From a virus (Duplodnaviria > Caudoviricetes), in IMG/VR virus record IMGVR_UViG_3300042884_000410, positions 1 through 60,358 of that record: a stretch of 60,358 nucleotides of DNA. One strand, written 5' to 3'. This document shows positions 1 through 60,358 of the stretch, piece after piece. How positions within the stretch are numbered: the stretch's first letter is position 1; each line of letters starts with the position of its first letter. A program made the translations under genes and the position numbers. The notes under the pieces are model-generated. The model saw only the letters and a program-made list of their open reading frames with translations, made no database searches and had not been told where the DNA came from.

Positions 1-303
1 ACAGGGGGGGAACTAACACATAGGCACGGGGGCGCGGGGGGGCCCGGGAGCCCGCACGGAGCCCGCACAGGCCCGCGCTTCTTCGTGCGCATGGGGCAGC
101 GCGGGACCGCTCAAAGGCCCGCAGAACCGCAGCCTCGCAGCCTCGCGGGCATTCCCGGGCGGGGGCATGGTGCAAAAGGTCCGGTTGGCCCCTGTTTACG
201 GGGGCCAACCACAGCCGTTTTCTGACCAGTTTCGGCTGACCACCACCCCACCCACCACCCCACCGCTGATCGGCCCACAGGCAGGCAGCCACGGGCTCAG
301 GAA
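1..303. repeat. Left terminal direct repeat (imperfect copy of 60056-60358)
   Basis: Colinear with 60056-60358; 12 substitutions, all between positions 98 and 176; contains hairpin GGTTGGCCCC/GGGGCCAACC at 183-210. Confidence 0.95.
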
Positions 304-397
304 AGCATCGCAGCGCGGCAGGCAGGAAAGCAGCGCGGTCGGTGTGCGGGAAAGCAGCGCAGCCCACGGGAAGCATCGCAGCGCGGGAAAGCAGCGC
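300..397 (+). repeat. Five short direct repeats GG(A/G)AAGCA(G/T)CGC next to the terminus
   Basis: Copies at 300-311, 325-336, 349-360, 368-379, 386-397. Confidence 0.8.
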
Positions 398-499
398 GGT
401 CGGCAGGCTTCCCGGTCGGTCGGCATCTTCCCCGCATTGTTCGCCCTGGCCGCGCTGTTTTTCGCGCTCTCTCGCGTGTGCGCTGTCTTACGCACGCGG

Positions 500-526
500 A
501 ATTTCTGAAAGAAATTTGGCCCAGTT
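500..526 (+). promoter_or_regulatory. Hairpin-box element copy 1 (7-bp stem, GNA loop, then GCCCAGT)
   Basis: AATTTCT-GAA-AGAAATT-T-GGCCCAGTT, upstream of the first early gene. Confidence 0.7.
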
Positions 527-586
527 GGTTGGTGTCGACATCGATCACTTCGGTCGGTGCCGGCAATCCTCTTCGGAGCCACCAAC

Positions 587-1354
587 ATGGCAAAGCCCAC
601 CAAGCCCCTCGGGATCGTTCTCCACCGTGGCCGCTCTCCGTTTGCAGACGGCCAGTATGTCGTGATCGCCCTCCTGGGCAAGTCGAGCAACGAGAAGACG
701 GGGGGCATGATCCAAACGTATGTGATCGTTGACGATGCGGCCAAGCCCACCGAAACGGTTAAGGCGGGGACCGACAGCATCGTGTGCGGCGACTGTCCCC
801 TCCGTGGCATCCTCGGGAAGATGGGCCGCGCCTGCTATGTGAACCTTGGGCAGGGGCCGCGAGCGGTTCATCAAGCGTACCTTGCGGGCAAATACGCGGA
901 GTACGATCCCGCGATCCACGACAGATTTTTCGCCGGGAAGATGATCCGGTGGGGCACCTACGGCGAGCCGGTTTTGATCCCCCTGGCGACGGTTCAACAC
1001 CTCAATGGGCTGGCGAGCGGGTGGACGGGCTACACCCACCAGTGGAGCAAGCCGGAATTCGCAGCCTACCGAGACGTTTTCATGGCCAGTGTCCACGACA
1101 GCCGCTCGGCTGACCACGCGAAGCACCTCGGCTGGCGGTACTTCAGGTCGGCGGTTGACGCTACCCCCGGCCCTGGCGAGATCGTGTGCCCCGCCTCGAA
1201 AGAGGCTGGCAAGCGCACCACCTGCGCCGACTGTGGCATCTGCAACGGTCGTGGTCCGAATGACACCCCCAACCGGGTTTCGGTCGTGATCGCGATTCAC
1301 GGCGGGTTCGGTGTGATGGCAGCCGCCAAACACACCCCCGCCATCGCGTCTTAA
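587..1354 (+). CDS. Cys-rich phage protein, Gp88-like (putative Fe-S/metal-binding)
   Basis: GGAG RBS then ATG 587; motifs SSNEKTGGM, CGDCPLR..CY, WTGYTHQW, CPAS..TCADCGIC. Confidence 0.6.
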   Translation: MAKPTKPLGIVLHRGRSPFADGQYVVIALLGKSSNEKTGGMIQTYVIVDDAAKPTETVKAGTDSIVCGDCPLRGILGKMGRACYVNLGQGPRAVHQAYLAGKYAEYDPAIHDRFFAGKMIRWGTYGEPVLIPLATVQHLNGLASGWTGYTHQWSKPEFAAYRDVFMASVHDSRSADHAKHLGWRYFRSAVDATPGPGEIVCPASKEAGKRTTCADCGICNGRGPNDTPNRVSVVIAIHGGFGVMAAAKHTPAIAS

Positions 1355-1380
1355 ATCCCCGAAGGGGATTCAGCCCAGTT
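1354..1380 (+). promoter_or_regulatory. Hairpin-box element copy 2
   Basis: AATCCCC-GAA-GGGGATT-C-AGCCCAGTT. Confidence 0.75.
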
Positions 1381-1387
1381 GATTGGC

Positions 1388-1437
1388 AGCGGTTGGCTGA
1401 CGGAAGCCACACCCCGGTTCGATTCCGGGGGACCGCT
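1388..1437 (+). ncRNA. tRNA-like three-way junction, copy 1 (no anticodon arm)
   Basis: P1 AGCGGTT/GACCGCT; P2 GGCT-GACGGA-AGCC; P3 CCCCGG-TTCGATT-CCGGGG (T-loop). Confidence 0.7.
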
Positions 1438-1477
1438 CTGTTTCGCGTTCGGTTCACCACACCAGAGGGCATTCACG

Positions 1478-1702
1478 ATGGCACGACACCACGACAGCGA
1501 CGGTTACATCTCCGCAAAGCACACCGCTGTGGCAATGGCGCAGCACACCAACCAAACCCGCTATGTGATCGAAATCGACAGCGGAGAGGGGCGGGCTTTC
1601 ACCTCCTGCGGAGAGGACTACATCGACGGGCCGGAATACATCGCGTTCGACGGGATGGTGTATGCGACCGTCTACCCGGACGGGGAAATCCACGCGGAGT
1701 GA
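1478..1702 (+). CDS. Hypothetical protein, 74 aa
   Basis: GAGGG RBS, ATG 1478 (MARHHDSDG), acidic small ORF between repeated elements. Confidence 0.75.
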   Translation: MARHHDSDGYISAKHTAVAMAQHTNQTRYVIEIDSGEGRAFTSCGEDYIDGPEYIAFDGMVYATVYPDGEIHAE

Positions 1703-1709
1703 AGCGACG

Positions 1710-1758
1710 GCGGCTGGCAGACGGGAGCCACCACCCTGGTCCGATTCCAGGGGGCCGC
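1710..1758 (+). ncRNA. tRNA-like three-way junction, copy 2
   Basis: P1 GCGGCT/GGCCGC; P2 GGC-AGACGGGA-GCC; P3 CCCTGG-TCCGATT-CCAGGG; compensatory changes versus copy 1. Confidence 0.7.
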
Positions 1759-1799
1759 ATTGGTTACGGGTTCGGGTTCACACACTGAGGGCATTCACG

Positions 1800-2198
1800 A
1801 TGGCTGAAACACTGACGATTGGCGACGTTGTTCTGACGGTCTGCGGACGGGATCGGGACTGGAAGGGCCGCACTTGTTACGAGGTGTCGATTGCCTTCCC
1901 CGAAGGGTATTCCTACACCGACAAGCACGGGGAAACGCAGTTCATCGACCGGGGATTCATCCACCGGGAACGTGACCTGCGGTCTGGCTGCCACGGCGGA
2001 ACGGAACGCGACGGCATGGAATCCCTCCTGGGATTTCTGACGGCGGCGGCGGAATCGCATGGCTACACCGTGCGGACGGGCCGCGAGAGCGACAACAGCG
2101 ACCTGTTCCCCGCCTTCATCGTGGAATGGGCTTACCAGAATGCTGACGAGATCAGCATCGCATCCTTCGATACGGATCGCCCTCTCACGGGTGCGTAA
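1800..2198 (+). CDS. Hypothetical protein, 132 aa
   Basis: Leader GAGGGCATTCACG-ATGGC identical to that of the 1478 gene. Confidence 0.8.
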   Translation: MAETLTIGDVVLTVCGRDRDWKGRTCYEVSIAFPEGYSYTDKHGETQFIDRGFIHRERDLRSGCHGGTERDGMESLLGFLTAAAESHGYTVRTGRESDNSDLFPAFIVEWAYQNADEISIASFDTDRPLTGA

Positions 2199-2223
2199 TC
2201 TCCGAAGGAGATTCAGCCCAGTC
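2197..2223 (+). promoter_or_regulatory. Hairpin-box element copy 3
   Basis: AATCTCC-GAA-GGAGATT-C-AGCCCAGTC; C-G to T-A covariation versus copy 2. Confidence 0.75.
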
Positions 2224-2230
2224 CATTGGC

Positions 2231-2277
2231 AGCGACGTTGGTTGACCGCAAGGGTGGTTCGATTCCGCCCTGTCGCT
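2231..2277 (+). ncRNA. tRNA-like three-way junction, copy 3
   Basis: P1 AGCGACG/TGTCGCT; weak P2 TTG..CAA; P3 GGGTGG-TTCGATT-CCGCCC. Confidence 0.65.
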
Positions 2278-2312
2278 CTGGTTCGATTGTCCACACCTTG
2301 GGAGACACGACG

Positions 2313-2708
2313 ATGCACACGCCAAACATTCCGCAGAAAACTCTCCCGGCCCACTTCATGGTCGGTGACGATGGCAACCTGTACCGCGAGGTCAGGGTTG
2401 CAGGGGGGCTTTCGTTTGTCCCGGTTCGGCTTCTCTACCGCTACCACCACCGGACCATCCGGTCTGTGGCTGACATGAAAGCCTGCCTGCGGGCCGGGAA
2501 ATACGCTTGGCCCGGTGGCTATGCCTGCTACTTCATCACCTCTGACGGGGAAATCCTGTCCTTTGAGGCAGTGCGGGAGGAACTGACGCAGGTCATGGAC
2601 GCAATCAAGCACAACCTGCGGTCTGGCTGGAAGGTGGTCGGCATGGCCTGCACCGCAGAGGACGACGAAACCGCACGGTGCTGCCACACCGGCAAGGAAA
2701 TCGACTGA
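2313..2708 (+). CDS. Phage hypothetical protein (AWPGGY motif)
   Basis: GGAG RBS, ATG 2313; KYAWPGGYACYFITSDG...RCCHTG. Confidence 0.8.
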   Translation: MHTPNIPQKTLPAHFMVGDDGNLYREVRVAGGLSFVPVRLLYRYHHRTIRSVADMKACLRAGKYAWPGGYACYFITSDGEILSFEAVREELTQVMDAIKHNLRSGWKVVGMACTAEDDETARCCHTGKEID

Positions 2709-2715
2709 CGGCACC

Positions 2716-2766
2716 CTGCCACCCCCTCTGTTCAGAGCAGAGGGGAGAGTTGGGGATCGTTGGGTT
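2716..2766 (+). repeat. Second intergenic repeat family, copy A
   Basis: CTGCCA-CCCC(stem-loop)GGGG-nnAGTTGGGGATCG; homologous to 3491-3539. Confidence 0.6.
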
Positions 2767-2788
2767 ACACACACGAAGGAGGTGGCAC

Positions 2789-3031
2789 ATGCCACGGATC
2801 GCAGTCTGCTTGAACATCGCGGAGATCAATGACCCGCACTTCTCCGGGGAGAACGATTACCCGGACTACTGCCGCCGGTGCTATGCGAAGGCCAGCGAGG
2901 CGAAGATTGCCCAGGAATACGGGGTGCCGCTGGAGGCAGTGGAAAAGATTGGTGACGAACACCCTGGGTATGAGGGTGAGGACTACACATGCACGGCTTG
3001 CAACAAAACCCTGACCGGAAAGGATGACTGA
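2789..3031 (+). CDS. Small putative Zn-binding protein, 80 aa
   Basis: AAGGAGGT RBS; CRRC...H...CTAC. Confidence 0.8.
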   Translation: MPRIAVCLNIAEINDPHFSGENDYPDYCRRCYAKASEAKIAQEYGVPLEAVEKIGDEHPGYEGEDYTCTACNKTLTGKDD

Positions 3032-3033
3032 CC

Positions 3034-3258
3034 ATGACTGACCAGTTCACCAAGCCGATTGACATCGACATCGTAGCCCGCAACCTGTTCGGGATTACGG
3101 GGCCGGAACTGCGGGCCATCATGCAGAAAGCTGGGATGCCCTGCGATGGGCCGACCGTGAAGCTGTTGGATGCCGTGAAAGCAGGAAGCATGTGCCCCCC
3201 CGTGCGTGACGAGAGGGCCGAAGAATTGCGGATGACTCGTATGAGAAGGGAGCGATGA
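3034..3258 (+). CDS. Hypothetical protein, 74 aa
   Basis: Tightly packed ORF in early operon. Confidence 0.7.
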   Translation: MTDQFTKPIDIDIVARNLFGITGPELRAIMQKAGMPCDGPTVKLLDAVKAGSMCPPVRDERAEELRMTRMRRER

Positions 3259-3479
3259 TGACCCACACAACGACGGTTGACCTGACCAGAGGTGAGCTTT
3301 CCATCCTTGCTACCTCTCTGGAAAGAGAGTGGCAGCGGACGAGCAAGCTGTGGACCGATGGTAACCGGGACGGTTGGTATGACGAGAAGGCGAAGGAGCG
3401 GGTGGAAGTCCACCTGTACGAGACTGACAAGCTGTTCAACAAACTCAGGAAGCTAATCAAGGAGATGGACAATCGCTGA
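3255..3479 (+). CDS. Hypothetical protein, 74 aa
   Basis: GGAG RBS, ATGA overlap with upstream gene. Confidence 0.75.
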   Translation: MMTHTTTVDLTRGELSILATSLEREWQRTSKLWTDGNRDGWYDEKAKERVEVHLYETDKLFNKLRKLIKEMDNR

Positions 3480-3490
3480 TCTGCGGCCCA

Positions 3491-3539
3491 CTGCCAACCC
3501 CCGTGACTGAGACACGGGGGCCAGTTGTGGATCGGGGTT
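3491..3539 (+). repeat. Second intergenic repeat family, copy B
   Basis: CTGCCA-ACCCCC(stem-loop)GGGGG-CCAGTTGTGGATCG; homologous to 2716-2766. Confidence 0.6.
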
Positions 3540-3559
3540 CGACTAACAAGGGAGGTGTA

Positions 3560-3793
3560 ATGGTTCCGTATTTCACCACGACGGCACGGCTGAAGGAGCG
3601 GGTGGGTTGTTACGGTCTGTCGATAGAGACTGGTGCGGCTGGCGAGGAGGTGGGCGTGAAGCTGTATGTGGCTCCAGGTTTTTCCGCCTCGCAATCCGAC
3701 GCCTGGGAGATCACGACGGGGCGTATGAAAGGTTCATTCATCGACGGCAAGTTGTTGTCGTTCGACCTACCCACCAGTGAAGGAGGTGAGTGA
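3560..3793 (+). CDS. Hypothetical protein, 77 aa
   Basis: GGAGGT RBS, ATG 3560. Confidence 0.7.
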   Translation: MVPYFTTTARLKERVGCYGLSIETGAAGEEVGVKLYVAPGFSASQSDAWEITTGRMKGSFIDGKLLSFDLPTSEGGE

Positions 3794-3996
3794 TGCAGAC
3801 ACAAAAGGTTAGCGAACTGAATGTGGGCGACCGCATTCGCTTCAACGACGAAGACTATGTGGTGTCAGGCGTGGACTGGCTGGCGCGTCATGACTGTGCG
3901 GTGTACCTGTGCAACGAGCAGGCAACCGACTGGCGATTGCCGCTTCAAGCTGGCGACAAGGTAGAGGTTGTGAGTTTCTCAACGGAGGACGAGTGA
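3793..3996 (+). CDS. Hypothetical protein (small beta-rich)
   Basis: AGGAGGT RBS, TGATG coupling; ELNVGDRI. Confidence 0.75.
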   Translation: MQTQKVSELNVGDRIRFNDEDYVVSGVDWLARHDCAVYLCNEQATDWRLPLQAGDKVEVVSFSTEDE

Positions 3997-4229
3997 TGAG
4001 CAAGCGTGACGGGTGGCGGGTTGGGCATTCCGTTGTCGCATGGGAGTTGGCACTGCCGTATAGCAATGCTCGGCTCCGGTGTCTCAACAGCCCTTTGCTG
4101 CACAGGCGCATGGCAACCATCATGGATGACGCATGGGCAGATGATGCCGATCACCTACGGTGGGTGAACACGGCGAAGGTGGCAGAGATCGTGAAGTGGG
4201 CGGAAGCAATCGAAAGGAATGGTGAGTGA
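3996..4229 (+). CDS. Hypothetical protein, 77 aa
   Basis: GGAGG RBS, TGATG coupling. Confidence 0.7.
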   Translation: MSKRDGWRVGHSVVAWELALPYSNARLRCLNSPLLHRRMATIMDDAWADDADHLRWVNTAKVAEIVKWAEAIERNGE

Positions 4230-4486
4230 TGTGGCAGAGCGAGGAGAGTGGCAGGGAGCGGGATGCTCGTTGGCGCAAGCGTGTCAACCAACTGGCCGAT
4301 GAGGCGGCGCAGCACGGCGACCTACTTGGTGCCGCACTGTGTGCCAAGGCATTGGGTGATGATCTCCGTGGGTATGCACTGAACGAGGCACAGCGGGAGA
4401 ACGTGGAGTCAGCAACGAAAGAGGAAGTGATTCGACAGGTCAACCATATGCTGCACGATGAGGCAGCAAGAAAGGCAGGTGGCTGA
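4229..4486 (+). CDS. Hypothetical protein, 85 aa
   Basis: TGATG coupling on both sides. Confidence 0.75.
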   Translation: MWQSEESGRERDARWRKRVNQLADEAAQHGDLLGAALCAKALGDDLRGYALNEAQRENVESATKEEVIRQVNHMLHDEAARKAGG

Positions 4487-4695
4487 TGAGCGGACACAAG
4501 GTGATCTATCACACCGTCCAGACCCAGCACCGACTGAGCGAAAGCTCGGCACGGGGTGAGGTTGTCGGTGTGTTTGAGGTGTGGGCGAGGGACACAGCCA
4601 TCGGAAATTCATGGCTTGTGGCAAAGTGCGAGACTCGTTCAGAGGCGGATGAGATTACGAAGAAACACAAGGCAGGAAAGGAAGGCGAGCGATGA
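4486..4695 (+). CDS. Hypothetical protein, 69 aa
   Basis: Coupled ORF in early operon. Confidence 0.7.
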   Translation: MSGHKVIYHTVQTQHRLSESSARGEVVGVFEVWARDTAIGNSWLVAKCETRSEADEITKKHKAGKEGER

Positions 4696-5000
4696 GAACG
4701 ACGATGACCCTGGTGCTGGCACTGGTAGCTGGCACCGCATTCGGTCAGTACCCCGTGCCAGGATGGGGCTACTTCAACAAGGCTGAAGCCATGCAGCAAC
4801 AGGCATGGCAGAACCAGCAATGGCAGCGTGAGCAGCGGGAGAAGGAAGCGAACTACCTATGGGGCGGCGACCCTATGGAGTACGCAGAGCGAGGTGCCCG
4901 CATTCGGATGATGAAGGAACAGACCCGGGCCCTGCGGTTGCAGAATGACTACCGCGAGAAGACGGGCAACCCCTTCATCGACAACAATCCGTTTCGTTAG
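4692..5000 (+). CDS. Putative exported small protein
   Basis: Signal-peptide-like N-terminus MRTTMTLVLALVAGTAFG-Q. Confidence 0.7.
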   Translation: MRTTMTLVLALVAGTAFGQYPVPGWGYFNKAEAMQQQAWQNQQWQREQREKEANYLWGGDPMEYAERGARIRMMKEQTRALRLQNDYREKTGNPFIDNNPFR

Positions 5001-5029
5001 TTGACAATGTACGCATGTATATGTAGACT
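5001..5029 (+). promoter_or_regulatory. Sigma70-type promoter
   Basis: TTGACA (5001-5006), 17-nt spacer, TAGACT (5024-5029). Confidence 0.85.
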
Positions 5030-5039
5030 CGCGGGCACG

Positions 5040-5066
5040 AAGTAACGGAGTTACTTCAGCCCAGTT
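5040..5066 (+). promoter_or_regulatory. Hairpin-box element copy 4
   Basis: AAGTAAC-GGA-GTTACTT-C-AGCCCAGTT, just downstream of the predicted start site. Confidence 0.75.
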
Positions 5067-5081
5067 AGATAGCAACGACAA

Positions 5082-5130
5082 GGACAGACCCCGGCAGCCA
5101 ACTTCGGCTGACCGGGGTCTGTTCGTTTTT
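5082..5130 (+). terminator. Intrinsic terminator-like hairpin in the leader of the DUF932 gene
   Basis: GGACAGACCCCGG/CCGGGGTCTGTTC stem plus inner CAGCC/GGCTG, followed by GTTTTT. Confidence 0.7.
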
Positions 5131-5143
5131 ACCCCCAAAGGAA

Positions 5144-6019
5144 ATGACCATGACCCCTCTCAACAGTTCGATTGTCGAGCGTGTCCGCAACTTCTTCCCC
5201 GATGTGACCAAGCAGTCGCTGTACTCGCCGGACATGAAGCCCACTCCTCACTGCGGCCTGTTCCGCAATGACACCGGGGCTTGCTTCGGTCCTGCGGTCA
5301 GTGCCAACTACGAGCTTCACACCACCGATGACATCTGTGCCCTGGTGGAAGCGAGCGAGCCGGTGCTGGGTGAGTGCGGCGACGTTCAGTTGGGCTTCCG
5401 CGATGGACACTATGTCTCCATCCAGCCCACCAAGGAGCATCTGTTTACCGTTCACAAGAACGACACGGTGTTCCCCCGGCTGATCGTGACGGCCCGCTAT
5501 GGCGAGGCTTTCACTGCCACCATCGGGTTGTTCCGGGTGGTGTGCGGCAACCTCGCCATCTTCCAGAAGGTGGCGGGAACCTCGGTGCGGATCAGGCACA
5601 CCTACTCCCTCCGCTCCAAGATGGAAGACCTGATCGAAGACTTCCACTCCCTGCGGAATGGGGTGGGCAACCTTGAGGTGGCCATCAGAGAGATGGCTGA
5701 CCGCAAGGTGCGTCTGGCTGATTTCCTCGACGGCATCTACGGCACTCCGCTTGAGAGTGCAACGGAGCGGTCGATCACCATGCACCGCAACCGCACTGAG
5801 CAGATCGTGCGGCGGCTGATGCGTGAGCAGGTTGCATTGGGTGAGCCCACTGCAATCAACGAGGTCAGTGCATGGGCCGCATTCAATGCGGTCCAGGGGT
5901 TCATCCAGCATGACTCCCGCCGCAAGGGCAAGCCGGGTGATTTCGACCGGGCCATCATGGCTCTGTCGGACGCGAAGGTGATGCAGGCACAACACCTCGC
6001 TCTCACCATGTCGGTCTAG
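5144..6019 (+). CDS. DUF932-family phage/plasmid protein
   Basis: GLFRNDTG..VSANYE; GLFRVVCGN; VRIRHT; SAWAAFNAVQGF. Confidence 0.8.
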   Translation: MTMTPLNSSIVERVRNFFPDVTKQSLYSPDMKPTPHCGLFRNDTGACFGPAVSANYELHTTDDICALVEASEPVLGECGDVQLGFRDGHYVSIQPTKEHLFTVHKNDTVFPRLIVTARYGEAFTATIGLFRVVCGNLAIFQKVAGTSVRIRHTYSLRSKMEDLIEDFHSLRNGVGNLEVAIREMADRKVRLADFLDGIYGTPLESATERSITMHRNRTEQIVRRLMREQVALGEPTAINEVSAWAAFNAVQGFIQHDSRRKGKPGDFDRAIMALSDAKVMQAQHLALTMSV

Positions 6020-7025: not shown

Positions 7026-7274
7026 ATGACCAACCCGTGGAAGCAAGAGCTTGACCCGCTGACTGAACGTCAGGAAGAGATACTCAGGTACATCGCAAGG
7101 CACATTGACCTCAATGGATTTCAGCCGTCGATTCGGGAGCTTGGAGAAAGGTTCCGCATCCGCTCTCCCAATGGAGTGGTCGGCCACCTCAAGGCAATGG
7201 AACGCAAGGGTTACTTGTCTCTTAATTCAATGACAGCCCGTGGGATTTCTTTTATGTGGAAGGAGTGGGTCTAA
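7026..7274 (+). CDS. LexA-type DNA-binding domain protein (no peptidase domain)
   Basis: LTERQEEILRYI...GFQPSIRELG..F.IRSPNGVVGHLKAMERKGYL. Confidence 0.9.
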   Translation: MTNPWKQELDPLTERQEEILRYIARHIDLNGFQPSIRELGERFRIRSPNGVVGHLKAMERKGYLSLNSMTARGISFMWKEWV

Positions 7275-8128
7275 TGAAGGCATACATCTACACCCGTGTC
7301 TCAACCACGGATCAGAACCTGACACCTGAGTGGCAGGCCAACGTGTGCATTGCGTACTACGAGAACAGCCTCAAGAAGAAGGGTTACGAACTGGTCGGTG
7401 TGTTCCATGACCACGGTGTGTCGGCCTACAAAATCAACTGGCGTGACAGGCCGAAGGGCAGGGAAGTGTTTGCCATGATGAAGCCTGGGGACATCATCAT
7501 CTGCCCCAAGCAGGACCGTGTCTTCAGGACAACACGCGACAAGGAGAATACCCTTCACTTCCTCCAGCAAACCGGGATCAACATCGCGATCCTCGACTGT
7601 ATGCTGGACACCACCACCGCAGCCGGGAAGTTTGCGGCTTCCATCATCGCTGCCGGTGGCCAGTTTGAGAGCGACACCAAGAGCGAGAGGGCACGGGCTA
7701 CCGCTTCGGTACGCAAGGCACACAAGCTGCCATCGAAGACAAGGCCACCGGCTGGGTGGAAGTATGACAAGCTGATTGACGAACTGATCCCCGACTGGGA
7801 CGAGCGGCGTCTGCTCGCCACGATCTATGACCTGAGGGATCGCGGCATCCAGCACGTTGCTGGCTCTGCCCGCACCCTCAAGGACAAGGGGATCAAGAGG
7901 GACTGCGGCTACGGCTACAACAAGGCGTGGCTCTGCCGTGCATACGGGCAGTTCCTGAGGAACTTCCCTCAAGAAGGGTTCGTCAAGTCACGCGGCAACA
8001 CCAAGGTGGCAGTGAAGGCGGGGCGGGTTAAGTCCTCTCTGTCCCGGGCGGAACGCGAGAGAGTCCTGCGTTCAACCGAAGTCGCCCCAGCTTTGCGGCC
8101 ATTAGCTTCGCAACTTGGCGGGTACTGA
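7274..8128 (+). CDS. Serine recombinase (resolvase catalytic domain plus C-terminal DNA-binding region)
   Basis: YIYTRVST catalytic motif, DHGVSA, QDRVFR, TTTAAGKF, FESDTKSERA. Confidence 0.9.
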   Translation: MKAYIYTRVSTTDQNLTPEWQANVCIAYYENSLKKKGYELVGVFHDHGVSAYKINWRDRPKGREVFAMMKPGDIIICPKQDRVFRTTRDKENTLHFLQQTGINIAILDCMLDTTTAAGKFAASIIAAGGQFESDTKSERARATASVRKAHKLPSKTRPPAGWKYDKLIDELIPDWDERRLLATIYDLRDRGIQHVAGSARTLKDKGIKRDCGYGYNKAWLCRAYGQFLRNFPQEGFVKSRGNTKVAVKAGRVKSSLSRAERERVLRSTEVAPALRPLASQLGGY

Positions 8129-8582
8129 TGCCCCTGTCCCTGGCCATCTGCCGGATGCTGGTTCCCTCTATGACATGATCCGTGATCCACTGCCGATCCT
8201 CGGCGGGCATGGCATGGAGGGCAACCAGCATCTCGGCGGGTGGCCCATCTTCTTCACGGGCCGGGAGTTTTCTTTCAACAACTTCCAGCGTCACCCGGTA
8301 CACGCTCCTAGACAGGGCACCCAGCCCACCATTGGAGCGTATCTCTGACCTACAACTCTTCAGTAGCTCATGCAGAATCGCCCGTGAGAAGTAAGCACTC
8401 ATCCCCCTGGCGGGATCGTAAGTGCGGGCGGCTACCACACAGGCAAGGCGAGCGGCAGACTCCAGGTCTTCCCTATCTACCACCTCCCGAAGGCACGGGT
8501 AGGACTCCAGAAAGTAGTGCAGGCACGGAGGGATTAGCTCCAGTGCCCGCTCTGCATAGCCCTGTTGTACTCGGGTCAGCAT
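8028..8582 (-). CDS. Sigma70/ECF-like sigma factor
   Basis: Region-2-like EDLESAARLA..AARTYDPARGMSAY; region-4-like GTSIRQMARDRGISTRQV. Confidence 0.8.
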   Translation of the reverse strand: MLTRVQQGYAERALELIPPCLHYFLESYPCLREVVDREDLESAARLACVVAARTYDPARGMSAYFSRAILHELLKSCRSEIRSNGGLGALSRSVYRVTLEVVERKLPAREEDGPPAEMLVALHAMPAEDRQWITDHVIEGTSIRQMARDRGISTRQVAKLMAAKLGRLRLNAGLSRVPPGTERT

Positions 8583-12526: not shown

Positions 12527-14104
12527 TTACCACTGGCCAACAGATTCCTCTGCTAGCACAGCTTCTCTCCGATCCACCTCTTGCTTCACGGCAGCCGACC
12601 ACATGGCATTCAATTTCCCCTCCCTCAACATCCACTGGAGGTAGGACAAGGGCACCACAGGGTCGCGCAGGGGCCTTCCTCGCCATCTGCCAAAGGGCAC
12701 CCTGAATCCACGCACGGTGGGAGTCTTGGCATCAGGGCGGGCGAACAGGTCGCGGGACCGGGAATCGAAGGTGACCCCGATGACCAGCTTCTTCCTCCGC
12801 TCCTTCTCGGCCTCCCGCTCCAGCCGCTCCATCTCCTTGAGGGCATCAAGCTCTGCCTGCAAGCTGGCATCCAGTTCATCAAGGGTCACTTCCTCGTCAG
12901 CGTTCTCCTCCTTGATCTTGTCGATGATCTCCTTCGGCCCGCTCAGGAGCATCTCAATGGCAGTGACCGGGGAGTGGAACCGGCTGGTGTTCGTGATGTC
13001 GTGGAAAATCCAGTCCGGCTTGGCACTGGCAGCGATGGCAGCCAGCCTCTCCTCTGCCGTGTGCAGTCCATCTAGGGTCCCGGTCAGTGCCCTGGTCCCC
13101 CGTCCCAGACCTTGAAGGAACGTGCCCTTCGATTTCGTGGGGGCCGCATTGAAAATCTCGTTGACCTGAGGGCAATCCCAGCCGCGCCCAAGCACCCGGC
13201 AATTGGTAATGAGAGTGTTCTCGCCGCTCTCAAACTTCTTGATCTCGGCCTCTCGCTCCTCGGGGTTCTGCTCCCCCCAGACGCACGAAACCTTGAGCCC
13301 ATAGCGGTCGGTCAGCATCTCCCTGATGGCCTTTGCCTGGGGCACAGACCGGCAGCGGATTACACCGTGACTCTTCTTGTGGTGCTGCTTCACCAGTTGA
13401 CATATGTCATGCCGGACAGACTCGGACATGAGGATGCCGTCGATCTCATGGGGCAGGAAGTCCACCTTCGTCTTGGTAAGGGCATCGAAGTTAATGGACT
13501 TGACGGTGTGGACAATGACCCTCGGCTTTACCAGCCAGCCCTGCTTGAAGGCTTCCATTAGCTCCATTGAGTAGGGGCATGAGGTGTAGAAGCCGAACAG
13601 CGGGCTGTGTTTGTCGGCTCGGTGGGGTGTAGCTGTTACTCCCAGCACCCTCGCCCCGGCGGCGATGAACTCCTGCATCATCTCCCTGAACTTCACAGAG
13701 AAATGAATGTCAGCCTCGTCAATAATGATCAGGTCAACGTGCCCGACAAACCGCTTGTACCTGCCATTCATTTTCAAGGTCTGGTGGGTAGCCACGATCC
13801 ACTCGTCGCCAGCATCCGCCTTGAGGATGGCCTGTTCGACCGATGCCACCCGGCCCCGCAGCCTGCGGATGGTGGCCACGGTCTGCTTGTTCACGGCATC
13901 CTGGCCCGACACCACCATCACCCTTGCCCCTTCGCGGGGCAGGGCGACGAACGCGGTGGTCTTCCCGACACCCGTAGGCAGGACGAGAAGAACAGCTTGG
14001 TGCCCATCTCGGTATGCCTGCCGGATGGCGACGATGGCTTCCTTCTGGTAGGGGCGAAGCACATCGGTGTCGAACAGGGGCAGGAAGACTTGTCCTTTCT
14101 TCAT
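12527..14104 (-). CDS. Superfamily 2 (DEAD/ResIII-like) helicase
   Basis: LRPYQ, LPTGVGKT, IIDEAD, GVTATPHR, QGLGRGTR; C-terminal PFGRWRG..P.SYLQW module. Confidence 0.9.
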   Translation of the reverse strand: MKKGQVFLPLFDTDVLRPYQKEAIVAIRQAYRDGHQAVLLVLPTGVGKTTAFVALPREGARVMVVSGQDAVNKQTVATIRRLRGRVASVEQAILKADAGDEWIVATHQTLKMNGRYKRFVGHVDLIIIDEADIHFSVKFREMMQEFIAAGARVLGVTATPHRADKHSPLFGFYTSCPYSMELMEAFKQGWLVKPRVIVHTVKSINFDALTKTKVDFLPHEIDGILMSESVRHDICQLVKQHHKKSHGVIRCRSVPQAKAIREMLTDRYGLKVSCVWGEQNPEEREAEIKKFESGENTLITNCRVLGRGWDCPQVNEIFNAAPTKSKGTFLQGLGRGTRALTGTLDGLHTAEERLAAIAASAKPDWIFHDITNTSRFHSPVTAIEMLLSGPKEIIDKIKEENADEEVTLDELDASLQAELDALKEMERLEREAEKERRKKLVIGVTFDSRSRDLFARPDAKTPTVRGFRVPFGRWRGRPLRDPVVPLSYLQWMLREGKLNAMWSAAVKQEVDRREAVLAEESVGQW

Positions 14105-14322
14105 CAGACACCCCCTTCCTGGCGACGACGCTCCTCCCGCTCGGCCTGCGCTTGCAGCCTGCCGTACTTCCCGACCAACTCCTCCCTGAGAATCGTGTAC
14201 TCAGGGGGCGCGTCGATCCCGATCCGCACGGCACCACCTTGGGTGATGTGCGTCACCGTGATCTTGATGTTCCCCGGTTCGATCACGATGGTCTGATTCA
14301 CCCTGCGGCCTAGCACCAACAT
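14104..14322 (-). CDS. csrA: Carbon storage regulator CsrA homolog
   Basis: MLVLGRR..QTIVI..NIKITV....AVRIGIDAP.EY.ILREEL. Confidence 0.9.
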   Translation of the reverse strand: MLVLGRRVNQTIVIEPGNIKITVTHITQGGAVRIGIDAPPEYTILREELVGKYGRLQAQAEREERRRQEGGV

Positions 14323-14879
14323 CACTCACCTCCGTGTGTAATTGGTTCGATTCCCAACGCTCCATCCAACACCGATGACTTCTTTGGTGGTCGCCCCCGA
14401 CGCTTCCTCACTGAAGCATCTGGCTGGCTGCCATCGACAGGTCTGTCTCCTTCTTGTTGGCGAACCTCCCCACCCACCGGGTTGACCATTCGTGCGTTGT
14501 CCACTGGTCTTGAACCCACTTGATCCGCTCGGCCAGATCGTCCGGCACTGGCCTCATCAACCCGCTCCTGGCTGACCGCCGATACTGGGTGTATTGGCTC
14601 CGCAGTTCGTGGAGCCGCAGGTCCGGCATCCGCTTCCTGACCTCTAGGAAGTCCAGCCCCTGCGACACCAGTTCCGACAGAAGCACCTCGTCCTCGTCCG
14701 TCATCTCTCTCAAGCAACCCATCGAAGAAGTTCTCCGCTTGTTCATCCAGGGCCGACTGCATCGTTCGCAACTCCGCGAACAGCAACGGCAAGACTTTCA
14801 TCAGCACGTTGGGCAACTCATTAAGGGTGGCGCGACACAAGTACCCTTCAAGCTGGTCGATGTCGGCTTTAGACAGCAC
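14322..14879 (-). CDS. Hypothetical protein with low-complexity C-terminus and AT-hook
   Basis: GTG start after AGGAGG; KRRGRPPKK. Confidence 0.65.
   Translation of the reverse strand: MLSKADIDQLEGYLCRATLNELPNVLMKVLPLLFAELRTMQSALDEQAENFFDGLLERDDGRGRGASVGTGVAGAGLPRGQEADAGPAAPRTAEPIHPVSAVSQERVDEASAGRSGRADQVGSRPVDNARMVNPVGGEVRQQEGDRPVDGSQPDASVRKRRGRPPKKSSVLDGALGIEPITHGGE
14408..14704 (-). CDS. Nested hypothetical protein, 98 aa (alternative frame)
   Basis: GAGAG then ATG; globular-looking sequence wholly inside 14322-14879. Confidence 0.55.
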   Translation of the reverse strand: MTDEDEVLLSELVSQGLDFLEVRKRMPDLRLHELRSQYTQYRRSARSGLMRPVPDDLAERIKWVQDQWTTHEWSTRWVGRFANKKETDLSMAASQMLQ

Positions 14880-17360: not shown

Positions 17361-18182
17361 ATGACCCTGACTGAGGTTGCGGTTGAGTACCTAGCGAGTA
17401 GGGACTTGTGCCACAACTACCAGCGGCATTTGATGCGAACGGCTGAGATGCTTCAGGCATCTGGGCTAACCTCCGTGGCCGACTTGACTCCTCAACGGGT
17501 CACCCGTTGGCTCGACTCTCTTGCGGTCAGTAAGACCACGAAGTCGAACTACCGTCGCCAAGCCCTCACGATTATTCGTGCGGCACTCGGTCCCGGTTGT
17601 GCAGATTTTATCGAAGGGGTCAGGCGTGTCAAGCACTCGGTTCCGCCGCCAGTGGCATGGACGAGAGAAGAGTTGTCGAGGTTGCTGCACGTTGCTCGAC
17701 ACCTCCCCGGCAAGCTGCAATGCGGATGCCCGGTCCACGTTTTCTTCACAGCTTGGTTGCTGGCAGGGTACTCCTGTGGGCTGCGCTTCAGTGACCTGTT
17801 GAACCTGAGGTGCAGTCAGATCAGGGACGGCAGGCTCTACACCATCCAGAGCAAGACGGGGGACTCCTTGGTACAGGTGTTGCCCCACGAATGCGTGGAT
17901 GCCCTCAACGAACTGATGGAGCTATCGCCAGACGGCAGGGTCTTCCGCTGGGCACTGGCAGAGAAGTGGCTGCGGATTCGCTGGGACCGCATGGTGGCGG
18001 CAGCGAAGCTCACAGGCACCTGCAAGTGGATGCGGCGCACGGGAGCCACTTGGGTTGAGGCTACCCAGCCCGGGAGTTCCAGCCGATTCCTTGGGCATCG
18101 GAGCCCTGAACTGGCCATGAAGCATTATGTGGACCGGACGCTCCTGCCCAACTCCTGCCCCATGCCCCCGCCCATCCGCTAA
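17361..18182 (+). CDS. int: Tyrosine recombinase/integrase (short, no arm-binding domain)
   Basis: GLRFSDL (R), QSKTG (K), KWMRR (K in place of H-x-x-R), FLGH, KHY (Y). Confidence 0.9.
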   Translation: MTLTEVAVEYLASRDLCHNYQRHLMRTAEMLQASGLTSVADLTPQRVTRWLDSLAVSKTTKSNYRRQALTIIRAALGPGCADFIEGVRRVKHSVPPPVAWTREELSRLLHVARHLPGKLQCGCPVHVFFTAWLLAGYSCGLRFSDLLNLRCSQIRDGRLYTIQSKTGDSLVQVLPHECVDALNELMELSPDGRVFRWALAEKWLRIRWDRMVAAAKLTGTCKWMRRTGATWVEATQPGSSSRFLGHRSPELAMKHYVDRTLLPNSCPMPPPIR

Positions 18183-33833: not shown

Positions 33834-35417
33834 CTACTTGGAGTAGAGGGATACGCCCGTGGAACTGGTCATGAGGAACTGGCCGTTGCCATAAGCCACG
33901 CTTGTCCAGTTGGCAGACCTAGGCAGGGTCACCTTCGTCCAGTTGATGCCGTCTGAAGAGATGGCTGAGATTGCGGATGGGCCACCAACTGCAACCCAAG
34001 TCCCATTGCCAAACGCAACTCCCGTCCAGTTCAGCGTTGCAGGCATACTGACAACTGCCCAGTTGATGCCGTCAGTGCTGGTGACCGCATTGGCACCGTC
34101 GCACACTGCCACGAACCGGCCATTCCCGTAGGTAACGTCGTTCCAGACCGCAGCGAACGGGAGGGTTGTCCCTACCCAGCCCTTTGCGTCTGCCGCACGA
34201 ATGCACTTATTGGTGGTGGCCCGCGTGACTGTGGCTAAAGAGTTCCTGAAGTAACCCGCGCCGACAGCCACAGACAGTGTGGTGCTGTTTGCCACCCCGT
34301 TGACATAAGCAAGATCGTACTGCGTGTTGGGTGTGGTGGTTGCGATGAGCCCAGATACCGCACCCTTTGCCCACGACAATCCGTCCGCTGAGTAGTAAGG
34401 CACCACATTGTCTTCAATTACGGAGAAGGCTGGCTTTGCAAAAGAAAAGAACTGGCCGTTCAGGTATGAACTCCACTTTGTCCCCAAATAAGAAACTGGC
34501 AATGGGGATCGGAGAGTCCAGTTGATGCCGTCTGGGCTTGTGCATGGGGTCACGCCGTTTATGCCTGACCATGTGCCTTTACCGAAAGCGGGCACTGTCT
34601 CAAGGGTGCTGATTCCGGTCCATGTCAGGCCATCGACAGAAAAGCCGCCGCCAAGACCTGAGAATTGATCTTCGTAGAACTGGATCAGCGACGGTGCCTT
34701 ACTGAAGCCATCTCGCCATGTCGAGCCCGGGATGCTTGGCTTAACAGTCAGGTCGGACAACAGGGAGTAGGCAGGCCCCAAGGTGGCCGTGCTGGCCTTG
34801 CATCGGTAGGTCTTGCCGTTGTCAGCAAGGACTGCCTTGAACTTGAGAGACTGGCCGGGTGCCACATCTGTCCAATTAGCCCCGCCGTCTGTGGTCATCT
34901 GCCACATATAGACGATGGGAGTCTCGGTGGACTGAGCATTGGCATAAAGGCTGACATCATCACCAACGTAGACACTCTGGTCTGACGGAGAAGACACGAA
35001 AGTGAGGGTGTCGGTGCCGCCGCCGCCACTGCTTGGCAGGACTAGGTTCAGGGTCTGGGTGGGTGGTGTGCCCGTGATGGTTGCCAGCGGGACCGGGCCT
35101 GTGGTCACAGAGCCAATGACCAATGAGTACAAGGGAGCCGCAGGGCCAACAGCACCAGCGGGGCCAGCGGGGCCAGCCTCGCCCGGGGGGCCAGCTACAC
35201 CGGGCTCGGCCTGATAGGGCAAGTCCATGTAGGTGCTAGTGCCGTCACCGATCTTCCACTTGCCGGTGTCGGACTCATAGGCAGTCGCCCCCGCACTAAG
35301 CACGGGGTTAGATATGAACCACTCCGAAGAGGTCTTGGAGGGCATAGCAAACGGAGATGGAGAGCCGCAGCCGCAGCCAGAGGTAGTGCCGGTGCAGGTG
35401 CTTGGTACAAAGCTCAT
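33834..35417 (-). CDS. Fibre/spike protein: Mtd-type N-terminus, collagen, Ig-like domain, propeller repeats
   Basis: NPVL.AG..AYESDTGKWKIGDG; G-X-Y; PSDQSV..YMWQ..YRC; repeated SxDGINW / V.YGNG.FVAV. Confidence 0.8.
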   Translation of the reverse strand: MSFVPSTCTGTTSGCGCGSPSPFAMPSKTSSEWFISNPVLSAGATAYESDTGKWKIGDGTSTYMDLPYQAEPGVAGPPGEAGPAGPAGAVGPAAPLYSLVIGSVTTGPVPLATITGTPPTQTLNLVLPSSGGGGTDTLTFVSSPSDQSVYVGDDVSLYANAQSTETPIVYMWQMTTDGGANWTDVAPGQSLKFKAVLADNGKTYRCKASTATLGPAYSLLSDLTVKPSIPGSTWRDGFSKAPSLIQFYEDQFSGLGGGFSVDGLTWTGISTLETVPAFGKGTWSGINGVTPCTSPDGINWTLRSPLPVSYLGTKWSSYLNGQFFSFAKPAFSVIEDNVVPYYSADGLSWAKGAVSGLIATTTPNTQYDLAYVNGVANSTTLSVAVGAGYFRNSLATVTRATTNKCIRAADAKGWVGTTLPFAAVWNDVTYGNGRFVAVCDGANAVTSTDGINWAVVSMPATLNWTGVAFGNGTWVAVGGPSAISAISSDGINWTKVTLPRSANWTSVAYGNGQFLMTSSTGVSLYSK

Positions 35418-58846: not shown

Positions 58847-58880
58847 TATTTATGTCCCGGCTGGCGGATTTTGCTCCGCT
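58847..58880 (-). promoter_or_regulatory. Putative late promoter, class A copy 3
   Basis: AGCGG-N16-CGGGACATAAATA at head of the late block. Confidence 0.75.
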
Positions 58881-59062
58881 TCCTTGGCTTTGCGGTTGGC
58901 TCGGTACTGCTTCATGTAGGCAGCCTTCTTGAGCTTGAAAGCCTTGTAAGCAGCGGGGTCCTGCTTCAGCAACCGGCGACGTTCGTGGTAGCCACGGCGA
59001 TCAGACTCAAGGTCAGCGTCAGCGTTGATGGCGAGATAGGCAGCGGACCTGTGCAGCGGCAT
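58850..59062 (-). CDS. Small basic helical protein
   Basis: GGAG RBS; LKQDPAAYKAFKLKKAAY. Confidence 0.65.
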   Translation of the reverse strand: MPLHRSAAYLAINADADLESDRRGYHERRRLLKQDPAAYKAFKLKKAAYMKQYRANRKAKEAEQNPPAGT

Positions 59063-59176: not shown

Positions 59177-59584
59177 ATGAGCAACGCATCGCGGTGCCGG
59201 ACCTATTACCAGAAGCTCAAGGCAGACCCAGAGAGGTGGAAGGCATTCATGGAAAAGAGAGCCGCCTACAAGACCGGGGCGCGTGAACCATGTGAACCAT
59301 GTGAACCTAAGGGGAAGCCAACCTCGGAGGAACGGGCGGCATTGCTGGCAGCGTTCGATGAGCCTGCCCCGTCAGTAGCGCACCTCGGTGGCAAACACGC
59401 AGCCCCATCCACCGTCTATCACGGCATCCCACCTGAGGCACTCATCAAGCAATACCAAGAACACCACGCCAAGCAGCTTCCCCAGCAAGTGCCCCTCCAC
59501 GAACACCCCTTCATCAAAGCCCTCCAAGAGAGACTCCCATGCACCCTAGTCAAGGAACTGCCCCCCAAGGAGAAACCACAATGA
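59177..59584 (+). CDS. Hypothetical protein, 135 aa
   Basis: LKADPERWKAFMEKRAAY; 9-bp tandem repeat encoding EPCEPCEP. Confidence 0.7.
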   Translation: MSNASRCRTYYQKLKADPERWKAFMEKRAAYKTGAREPCEPCEPKGKPTSEERAALLAAFDEPAPSVAHLGGKHAAPSTVYHGIPPEALIKQYQEHHAKQLPQQVPLHEHPFIKALQERLPCTLVKELPPKEKPQ

Positions 59585-60014: not shown

Positions 60015-60055
60015 GCGACCTGGATGTAATCAAGATTCTTGATTTGGGAAAAAAG

Positions 60056-60358
60056 ACAGGGGGGGAACTAACACATAGGCACGGGGGCGCGGGGGGGCCC
60101 GGGAGCCCGCACGGAGCCCGCACAGGCCCGCGCTTCTTCGTGCGCATGGGGCCGCGCGGGACCGCTCAAAAGCCCGCAGAACCGCAGCCACGGGCGTTCC
60201 CGGGCATTCCTGGGCGGGGGCGTGGTGCAAGAGGTCCGGTTGGCCCCTGTTTACGGGGGCCAACCACAGCCGTTTTCTGACCAGTTTCGGCTGACCACCA
60301 CCCCACCCACCACCCCACCGCTGATCGGCCCACAGGCAGGCAGCCACGGGCTCAGGAA
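60056..60358. repeat. Right terminal direct repeat
   Basis: Copy of 1-303 with 12 substitutions. Confidence 0.95.

Follow-up and report, generated by a model that had tools for sequence, protein, structure and literature searches.

Among the closest described systems, lambda nut and rrn leader sites combine a boxB hairpin (a stem of about 5 base pairs, bp, with a GNRA-like pentaloop) with a single-stranded boxA and allow terminator read-through, while specialised NusG paralogues act at leader signals of their own, RfaH at ops on non-template DNA and LoaP at a leader RNA hairpin. Structured elements between genes are also known from RNA processing: ribonuclease (RNase) III sites separate the cistrons of the T7 early genes, the C4 RNA precursor of phages P1/P7 is a substrate of RNase P, and the minimal shape recognised by RNase P is an acceptor/T-arm helix. 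Moreover, homologous recombination has been proposed at the promoter-stem-loop cassettes of T4-type phages, and structure-specific recombination takes place at integron attC sites. Here, a stretch of viral DNA of 60,358 nucleotides (nt) (Duplodnaviria; Caudoviricetes; IMG/VR record IMGVR_UViG_3300042884_000410), hereafter called the window, was found to carry four copies of a hairpin element ahead of small genes. Together with its counterparts in related genomes, this element is a real, strongly covarying and undescribed signal, so far confined to six freshwater (uncultured lake) phage genomes, and it is best read as a cis-acting leader signal punctuating an array of exchangeable early accessory-gene cassettes.

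The four elements reported by the initial annotation at 500-526, 1354-1380, 2197-2223 and 5040-5066 were confirmed on the + strand, with the geometry and stem interiors originally described. The pattern AA-N5-GNA-N5-TT-NN-GCCCAGT occurs four times in the forward direction over the 60,358 bp, never in the reverse direction and never in a read-backwards control. The GCCCAGT box alone is present at chance level (17 sites versus 13.9 +/- 3.9 expected, with at least 17 reached in 26 of 100 shuffles), and therefore the signal is the hairpin with its fixed offset. When both strands were searched for perfect Watson-Crick hairpins of at least 7 bp with a G[AG]A triloop, only four were present and all of them were the elements, while 200 dinucleotide shuffles contained 0.29 +/- 0.60 such hairpins (maximum 4).

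Five close IMG/VR genomes (L406-L410), found via DUF932 and the 102-amino acid (aa) gene upstream of DUF932, contribute 7, 7, 7, 7 and 6 elements, which together with the window give a catalogue of 38 (34 in the relatives). All 38 are intergenic and on the gene-sense strand, and the next ATG follows 87-129 nt downstream, a single value of 67 nt being a false ATG within a downstream junction. The hairpin has 7 bp in every copy, and across its 20 distinct sequences the stem pairs in 245 of 245 cells, whereas shuffles reached 153 +/- 5 (245 in 0 of 1000) and a slid-partner control paired only 67-122 cells; the proposal of a stem selected for its structure while its sequence varies is thus borne out. 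The loop is G-R-A throughout (GGA in 35, GAA in three), and all three GAA loops belong to the window, the relatives having GGA in 34 of 34. The closing pair is C-G in 18 of 20 hairpins and the basal pair A-T in 18 of 20, while the inner pairs 2-6 show three or four pair types at each position; for instance, the first-element stem is AATTTCT/AGAAATT in the window and AATCTCC or AATCCCC in the relatives. Ahead of the hairpin lie about 10 nt in which purines and pyrimidines tend to alternate (8.2 of 11 steps versus a background of 5.4 +/- 1.7, p 1.5e-14), and after the hairpin comes a spacer of exactly 9 nt, which contains the box, the third base after the hairpin being a purine in 37 of 38. After the spacer comes TGGWTGG, with T, G and G at 90% or above, which may pair weakly with the CC of the spacer through G·U pairs in a shifting register. 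In addition, the stop codon of the upstream gene ends within the hairpin in 15 of the 38 copies.

The box behaves differently from the hairpin. It is uniform within a genome and differs among genomes, being GCCCAGT in the window and CCCTGT, GCCTCT or CCCTCT in the relatives, and one L407 element has the box type of L408. The check in related phages thus went both ways, since the hairpin was present and covarying but GCCCAGT was replaced by other 6-7-mers in every relative. The idea of GCCCAGT as a conserved, boxA-like sequence has to be abandoned: the box differs between phages with 93-99% identical DUF932, and therefore it cannot be the boxA of the host. Extracytoplasmic function (ECF)-type and sigma-54-type promoter readings of the box were rejected as well, their spacing and motifs being inconsistent among copies. 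A small leader open reading frame (ORF) starting at TGGATGG was discarded too, since it is unconserved and copy 4 has stop codons there, and so was the 7-bp hairpin itself as an intrinsic terminator, because a T tract directly follows it in none of the 38 copies.

Beyond these genomes, a core-pattern scan of viral contigs found the full stem in 11 of 68 matches, all 11 in the five relatives, and the other 57 pair at no more than 4 of 6 positions. In prokaryote genomes the same scan gave the full stem in 0 of 121 among the matches listed, which pointed to no host, and an exact-motif scan with GAA-N5-TTCAGCCCAGT in viral contigs hit at least 119 loci, with a pairing stem in none among the matches listed. 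The first gene of the array (587-1354, 255 aa) has 489 relatives in viral contigs, and in 80 of these, with at most 51% identity, the element was present in none. Eighteen other GNA hairpins of at least 7 bp in those 80 loci are of unrelated kinds, and one of them (L076/L077) merely holds the ribosome-binding GGAG ahead of an ATG. Two further structures were observed in distant phages sharing the 255-aa gene. On the - strand, L061, L064, L065, L073, L075, L078-L081 and L084 share a different conserved hairpin, TGTGTGTCT/AGACACACA, which has 9 bp and a GAA triloop, with GTCCGAAATGTG and TTCGGACG as its flanks. L006-L024 have a conserved leader directly after a TGA stop, about 120 nt upstream of the homologue of the 255-aa gene and once per locus, which consists of a long stem, CCCGGGCAGG ... 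CTGCCCGGG, and then a TTCGGYTGCCG hairpin.

Each element was said to be followed within 8-16 nt by another structure, and this holds for all four window copies: copy 1 precedes a stem-loop that reaches the start codon, copies 2 and 3 precede transfer RNA (tRNA)-like junctions, and copy 4 precedes a terminator. Over the 38 elements, the downstream structure is a tRNA-like junction in 16, an intrinsic terminator in 16 and a stem-loop at the first gene in 6. In the junction, a 6-bp helix encloses two arms, of which one is small and the other is a 6-bp T-arm whose UUCGAYU loop has a G-C closing pair; in the window, the canonical T-arm GG-UUCGAUU-CC lies within the early mRNA region. Compensatory changes were detected by RNAalifold in 13 of 19 pairs, and the helices include G·U pairs. 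With a covariance model of the junction, 17 copies scored 55-72 bits, every one of them from the six genomes, and the next best match scored 18.7 bits. ARAGORN called no tRNA or transfer-messenger RNA (tmRNA) genes and left the junctions uncalled, while Rfam gave no matches even at E<=10 over 1-6000, with no family's gathering score reached. A true tRNA or tmRNA was thus dismissed, as the junctions also have neither a D-arm nor a 7-nt anticodon loop.

The intrinsic terminators lie 20-50 nt downstream of their elements and about 20 nt ahead of the next ribosome-binding site; 13 of the 16 were called by a strict script and 3, with bulged stems, were read by eye. The association is tight from the other side too, since an element precedes 4 of 4 strong + strand terminators in L407 and, in L408, 3 of 4 + strand terminators with at least 9 pairs or a DUF932-type stem. 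In the stem-loop after the first element (526-589), the TGGTTGG region pairs, in the outer helix, with the bases before and including the ATG of gene 587-1354, whose ribosome-binding GGAG sits in a small UUCG hairpin, and an equivalent stem-loop reaching the start codon is conserved in all five relatives.

The setting described for copy 4 was confirmed as well, with TTGACA-17-TAGACT upstream (10/12), then a hairpin with a T tract, and then the DUF932 gene (E 1.4e-15). The promoter consensus in the six genomes is TTGACR-17/18-TA..(A/G)T, and the order of promoter, hairpin/box, terminator and DUF932 is kept in all six. Transcription would be predicted to start at about 5037, some 3-5 nt ahead of hairpin 4. 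In or near each array there is one sigma-70-like promoter (at least 9/12), always about 10 nt before the last hairpin, and no sigma-70-like promoter was found at 57-60.4 kb. Within the promoter spacer (5007-5023) and its equivalents in the relatives, repeated GTATAC/ATGTAC-type half-sites are present that are likely to form an operator, and further down this operon lies the gene of a LexA-type DNA-binding protein (7026-7274). The positions of the elements and their neighbouring features are collected in Table 1, together with two window boundaries of a second kind, at which another hairpin precedes a sequence related to that found after the elements.

Table 1. Features of the element array in the window (positions in the 60,358-nt stretch).
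Feature	Position	Strand	Description
Element 1	488-532	+	Alternating tract 488-499, GAA-loop 7-bp hairpin 500-516, GCCCAGT spacer, TGGTTGG 526-532; first of the array
Stem-loop after element 1	526-589	+	z -3.68; 0/200 shuffles fold as well
Element 2	1342-1386	+	Hairpin 1354-1370, starting within the TAA stop of gene 587-1354
Junction A	1384-1445	+	6-bp acceptor-like helix, small arm, 6-bp T-arm with UUCGAUU loop; 70.6 bits
Junction B	1705-1767	+	Without a preceding hairpin/box element; 55.4 bits
Element 3	2185-2229	+	Hairpin 2197-2213, starting within the TAA stop of gene 1800-2198
Junction C	2227-2285	+	tRNA-like three-way junction; 66.2 bits
Second kind of boundary	2709-2790	+	8-bp GC hairpin with 7-nt loop, then AGTTGGGGATCGTTGG and a CA-rich leader
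Second kind of boundary	3480-3560	+	Hairpin, then CCAGTTGTGGATCGG, similar to the element 1 box
Sigma-70-type promoter	5001-5029	+	TTGACA-17-TAGACT, 10/12; kept in all five relatives
Element 4	5028-5072	+	GGA-loop hairpin 5040-5056
Terminator of copy 4	5082-5130	+	Long GC stem, UUCG-type loop, T tract; z -6.82; 13 nt before the DUF932 ribosome-binding site

We tentatively read the element as a shape-recognised, boxB-like leader hairpin that would license read-through into the following cassette while not itself belonging to the nut family, a possibility to which we would give clearly less than an even chance. The element would be transcribed within the early + strand RNA, and a protein would read the shape of the hairpin (the loop G and A, the central purine, the C-G closing pair and the stem length), leaving the stem sequence unread; the protein-hairpin complex would then let RNA polymerase pass the following intrinsic terminator or structured spacer, with each cassette carrying its own local, boxB-like read-through signal. 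The G/U-rich TGGWTGG stretch could form a weak second hairpin, and the tRNA-like junctions, which replace the terminator in other cassettes, would most likely be processing sites separating the cassette mRNAs through RNase P acting on the acceptor/T-arm helix. As the terminator lies before their ribosome-binding site, genes after terminator-type elements need read-through, and since a single sigma-70-like promoter is present near the array, downstream genes depend on read-through; moreover, the order of promoter, element, terminator and gene is sensible only if passage is regulated. Action in RNA is supported by the strict sense strand and by the fixed spacing to RNA structures (UUCG loops, G·U pairs and the T-arm), and it would also fit a conserved promoter predicted to start the transcript a few nucleotides before the last hairpin.

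Similar to lambda nut, the element has a short hairpin with free stem sequence, a sheared G·A loop closure and an adjoining single-stranded box, and its place in the early operon of a temperate phage is after a promoter and ahead of terminators; all six genomes show this nut-like placement between promoter and terminator at their last element. It differs from lambda nut in having a triloop on 7 bp (38/38) instead of the boxB pentaloop on 5 bp, in that the hairpin precedes the box and that the box, unlike boxA, is not conserved between close relatives, and in having 4-7 copies per operon, each by its own terminator, where lambda has one per operon, and no N-like protein was found to be shared. 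RfaH and LoaP signals resemble it as short sense-strand leader signals just after a promoter that would confer terminator resistance in horizontally acquired operons, but no NusG-like gene was seen in the phage, the hairpin is far larger than the ops fold, and there are multiple copies inside the operon. The earlier suggestion of a read-through or protein-binding signal thus keeps its terminators (16/38) and its selected hairpin, and loses the GCCCAGT box and a boxB-type loop, and no shared N-like protein was found for it. The alternative that copy 4 defines a small RNA of about 95 nt may be compatible with several of the readings.

Several observations weigh against read-through. Among the early proteins encoded ahead of the last promoter, none is common to all six genomes, and no trans-acting factor was identified; the sole arginine-rich N-like candidate (4226-4486) was found in two of the six, and Pfam and PHROG searches gave no antiterminator match above threshold. 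With 16 of the 38 elements preceding a tRNA-like fold without a T tract and 6 a start-codon stem-loop, passing a terminator cannot be all that the element does. The stems contain 1 G·U pair in 133, against 125 of 740 in minimum free energy (MFE) folds of the adjoining RNA (Fisher 5.6e-9; the control is generous, as it includes spurious MFE pairs), and this near-absence of G·U is unusual for an RNA helix. Furthermore, C-GGA-G and C-GAA-G are DNA mini-hairpin caps, whereas the adjoining RNA helices use UUCG, and the terminator at about 183-225 lies upstream of the first element, beyond that element's help. By inspection, no alternative pairing of the element with the terminator arms was found, and the element is therefore not a classical attenuator.

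Alternatively, the array might be punctuated at the level of RNA processing, with host nucleases cutting a polycistronic early RNA at the boundaries, RNase P at the acceptor-like helix of the junction, and the hairpin serving as a protective 3' or 5' cap. The junction fits this: its 6-bp helix stacks on a T-arm of 6 bp, the T-loop has the canonical 7 nt, the pairs show compensatory changes, and the covariance-model copies are confined to the six genomes; the stop codons ending in the hairpin agree as well, and hairpin 4, close to the predicted 5' end, would occupy a classic stabiliser position. Repeated structured elements between early cistrons recall the T7 RNase III and RNase P sites, but there is no long duplex for RNase III and, unlike tRNA, the junction has neither D-arm nor 7-nt anticodon loop and was unrecognised as a tRNA by both programs. 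We consider this account rather unlikely. A protective hairpin needs no invariant G-R-A triloop, exact 7 bp, fixed spacer or box, UUCG or GNRA loops like those of the neighbouring structures would serve RNA stability better, and the hairpin would be redundant with the terminator in terminator-type cassettes.

The anatomy of the hairpin also invites comparison with the DNA-hairpin promoters of phage N4. N4 early promoters have been described as 5-7-bp stems with 3-nt GGA or GAA loops, conserved loop ends and closing pair and free stem bases, and with a start site fixed relative to the loop (PMC4496689, PMC13037366); the G-R-A loop is described on the template strand (PMC4496689), and the C-GGA-G and C-GAA-G caps as very stable DNA mini-hairpins that form the loops of these promoters (PMC13037366). 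By analogy, the inverted repeat here would extrude from supercoiled DNA and initiation would occur at the purine found 11 nt beyond the centre of the loop, making each cassette its own unit. The loops, the C-G closing pair, the 7-bp stems and the near-lack of G·U all agree with the N4 hairpin, the purine lies at the expected third base, several copies in the same orientation each stand 87-129 nt ahead of a gene, no sigma-70-like promoter precedes the array in the scanned stretches, and the box is constant within and variable between genomes, as in promoters of phage polymerases. We nonetheless consider such promoters quite unlikely. In all 38 copies the G-R-A loop is on the non-template strand, where N4 has it on the template strand, and a leftward reading with the + strand as template was rejected, since C does not recur consistently at the expected +1 position and no genes run leftward. 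No phage RNA polymerase, in the virion or otherwise, was found by Pfam or PHROGs (the ORFs searched, of at least 357 aa, matched nothing or non-polymerase families), PDB sequence search, a scan for known catalytic motifs, or the Atlas; proteins of 990 aa and 461 aa remain without assignment, while one of 1212 aa is similar to LPD38 polyvalent proteins (score 0.95) and one of 785 aa to tail fibres. Moreover, unlike N4, the phage looks temperate and its elements are flanked by a sigma-70 promoter and terminators: a canonical promoter stands 10 nt upstream of the last element, and a promoter directly before a terminator is sensible only for a terminator-blind polymerase.

A related but improbable alternative is that the hairpin acts as a DNA signal on the non-template strand, the C-GNA-G cap being extruded by supercoiling or exposed by transcription and read by the host polymerase with a phage factor. 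Such a factor might be the weakly sigma-like 184-aa protein encoded at 8028-8582, and the outcome could be either initiation at each cassette or a terminator-resistant polymerase.

The array is a mosaic. Of the 13 window genes in 587-5000, a single one (4692-5000) is matched by a homologue in each of the five relatives, whereas DUF932 and the genes after it are shared; the identical hairpin is joined to different upstream genes and downstream modules across genomes, and the alignment of metagenome DNA contigs from four lake runs is interrupted at the borders of elements (537->1389, 2131->2227, 2305->2702, 4903->5064 and 4993->5115). These features raise the question of whether the conserved flanks and hairpin serve mainly as exchange points that shuffle accessory genes by homologous or structure-specific recombination. 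Likewise, one-orientation arrays of small exchangeable genes, bounded by repeats conserved in shape and variable in sequence with stop codons inside, recall T4-type cassettes and attC, and at its end the operon has a conserved serine recombinase. The chance that exchange is the main function appears low, because any conserved intergenic repeat yields the same mosaic without a dedicated function, variable half-sites are unfit for a sequence-specific serine recombinase, and a recombination boundary leaves the strict rules of loop, length and strand and the fixed link to RNA structures unexplained. Unlike T4-type cassettes, no early promoter consensus follows the stem-loop here, and unlike attC (57-141 nt with extrahelical bases), the hairpin is 17 nt long and no integron-type integrase was identified.

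Known CsrA sites have 5-6-nt loops. It is very improbable that the hairpins bind the phage CsrA homologue (14104-14325, - strand; 73 aa, Pfam E 5.7e-17) or titrate host CsrA: the gene has a counterpart with 83-99% identity in 4 of 5 relatives, and in all three of those that are complete, all relatives have GGA loops, and CsrA is described as typically recognising GGA in hairpin loops (PMC13443453), but a C-G-closed triloop buries its G and A, and three of the four window loops are GAA (GGA in one) with perfect pairing kept through compensatory changes relative to the orthologues, so that the constraint is on the G-R-A fold, not on GGA. The leader of the CsrA gene itself has ACACGGAGG as its ribosome-binding site.

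With respect to the genome as a whole, the virus record of 60,358 bp is rated 100% complete by CheckV. Its first approximately 304 bases (1-304) recur imperfectly at 60055-60358 as a direct repeat with several mismatches and indels, and the array sits mid-record in the relatives; for these two reasons, the 'left end' of the record is read as an assembly wrap-around and no physical terminus, and the 304-bp repeat probably reflects a genome that is circular or permuted and varies among strains. The + strand carries the genes between about 59.2 kb and, across the junction, about 8.1 kb, and elsewhere they lie mostly on the - strand. Besides structural and packaging genes (P22-type portal, terminase and major head protein), the phage carries an integrase, a serine recombinase, a LexA-type DNA-binding protein, an ERF recombinase, CsrA and a helicase. 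Because of the integrase, the LexA-like repressor and the serine recombinase, together with the failure to find a polymerase gene, the phage looks temperate and dependent on the host polymerase, which counts in favour of the read-through reading.

Other observations concern possible regulators and control sites. The 184-aa protein of 8028-8582 (- strand), whose ORF overlaps the serine recombinase ORF at its 3' end by about 100 nt, matches sigma-70 region 2 (E 0.0016) and region 4 (E 0.0045), in the correct order but weakly and below threshold, and may be an ECF-like sigma factor of the phage. The divergent genes heading the two arms (58850-59062, - strand; 59177-59584, + strand) encode proteins sharing a K-x-DP-x3-KAF-x2-K-x-AAY-K-like motif and are possible paralogous regulators. 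Between a terminator-like hairpin (183-225) and element 1, about five tandem-like copies of GGAAAGCA(K)CGCAGCGCGG at 290-420 look like iterons or operators, and they were not seen in the same form in the relatives. The best sigma-70-like match in the scanned 6-20 kb, TTGACA-16-TAAAAT (17605-17632, - strand, 11/12), lies leftward inside the integrase ORF. Finally, a 527-aa protein (33834-35417, - strand) has an N-terminal Mtd_N (major tropism determinant) match, with collagen-repeat and tail-fibre proteins encoded nearby.

With their canonical T-arms inside mRNAs, the junctions make a clear candidate for punctuation of the tRNA type in a bacterial virus, and the family is absent from Rfam. If the element acts as DNA, hairpin-DNA signals would extend past N4-like phages to temperate users of the host polymerase; in that case a temperate phage without its own polymerase would carry a hairpin-DNA signal, strand-mirrored relative to N4 and coupled to tRNA-like punctuation of an integron-like cassette array. 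In either case, the 38 copies make up a natural mutagenesis set with exact rules, namely a stem of 7 bp that ends in a C-G closing pair and has almost no wobble, a G-R-A loop, and a spacer of 9 nt. If the element is indeed a read-through signal, it would represent a portable, cassette-borne form of antitermination in which each accessory gene brings both its insulator, the terminator, and its key, the hairpin, and this would explain how early genes can be shuffled freely without breaking expression of the operon.

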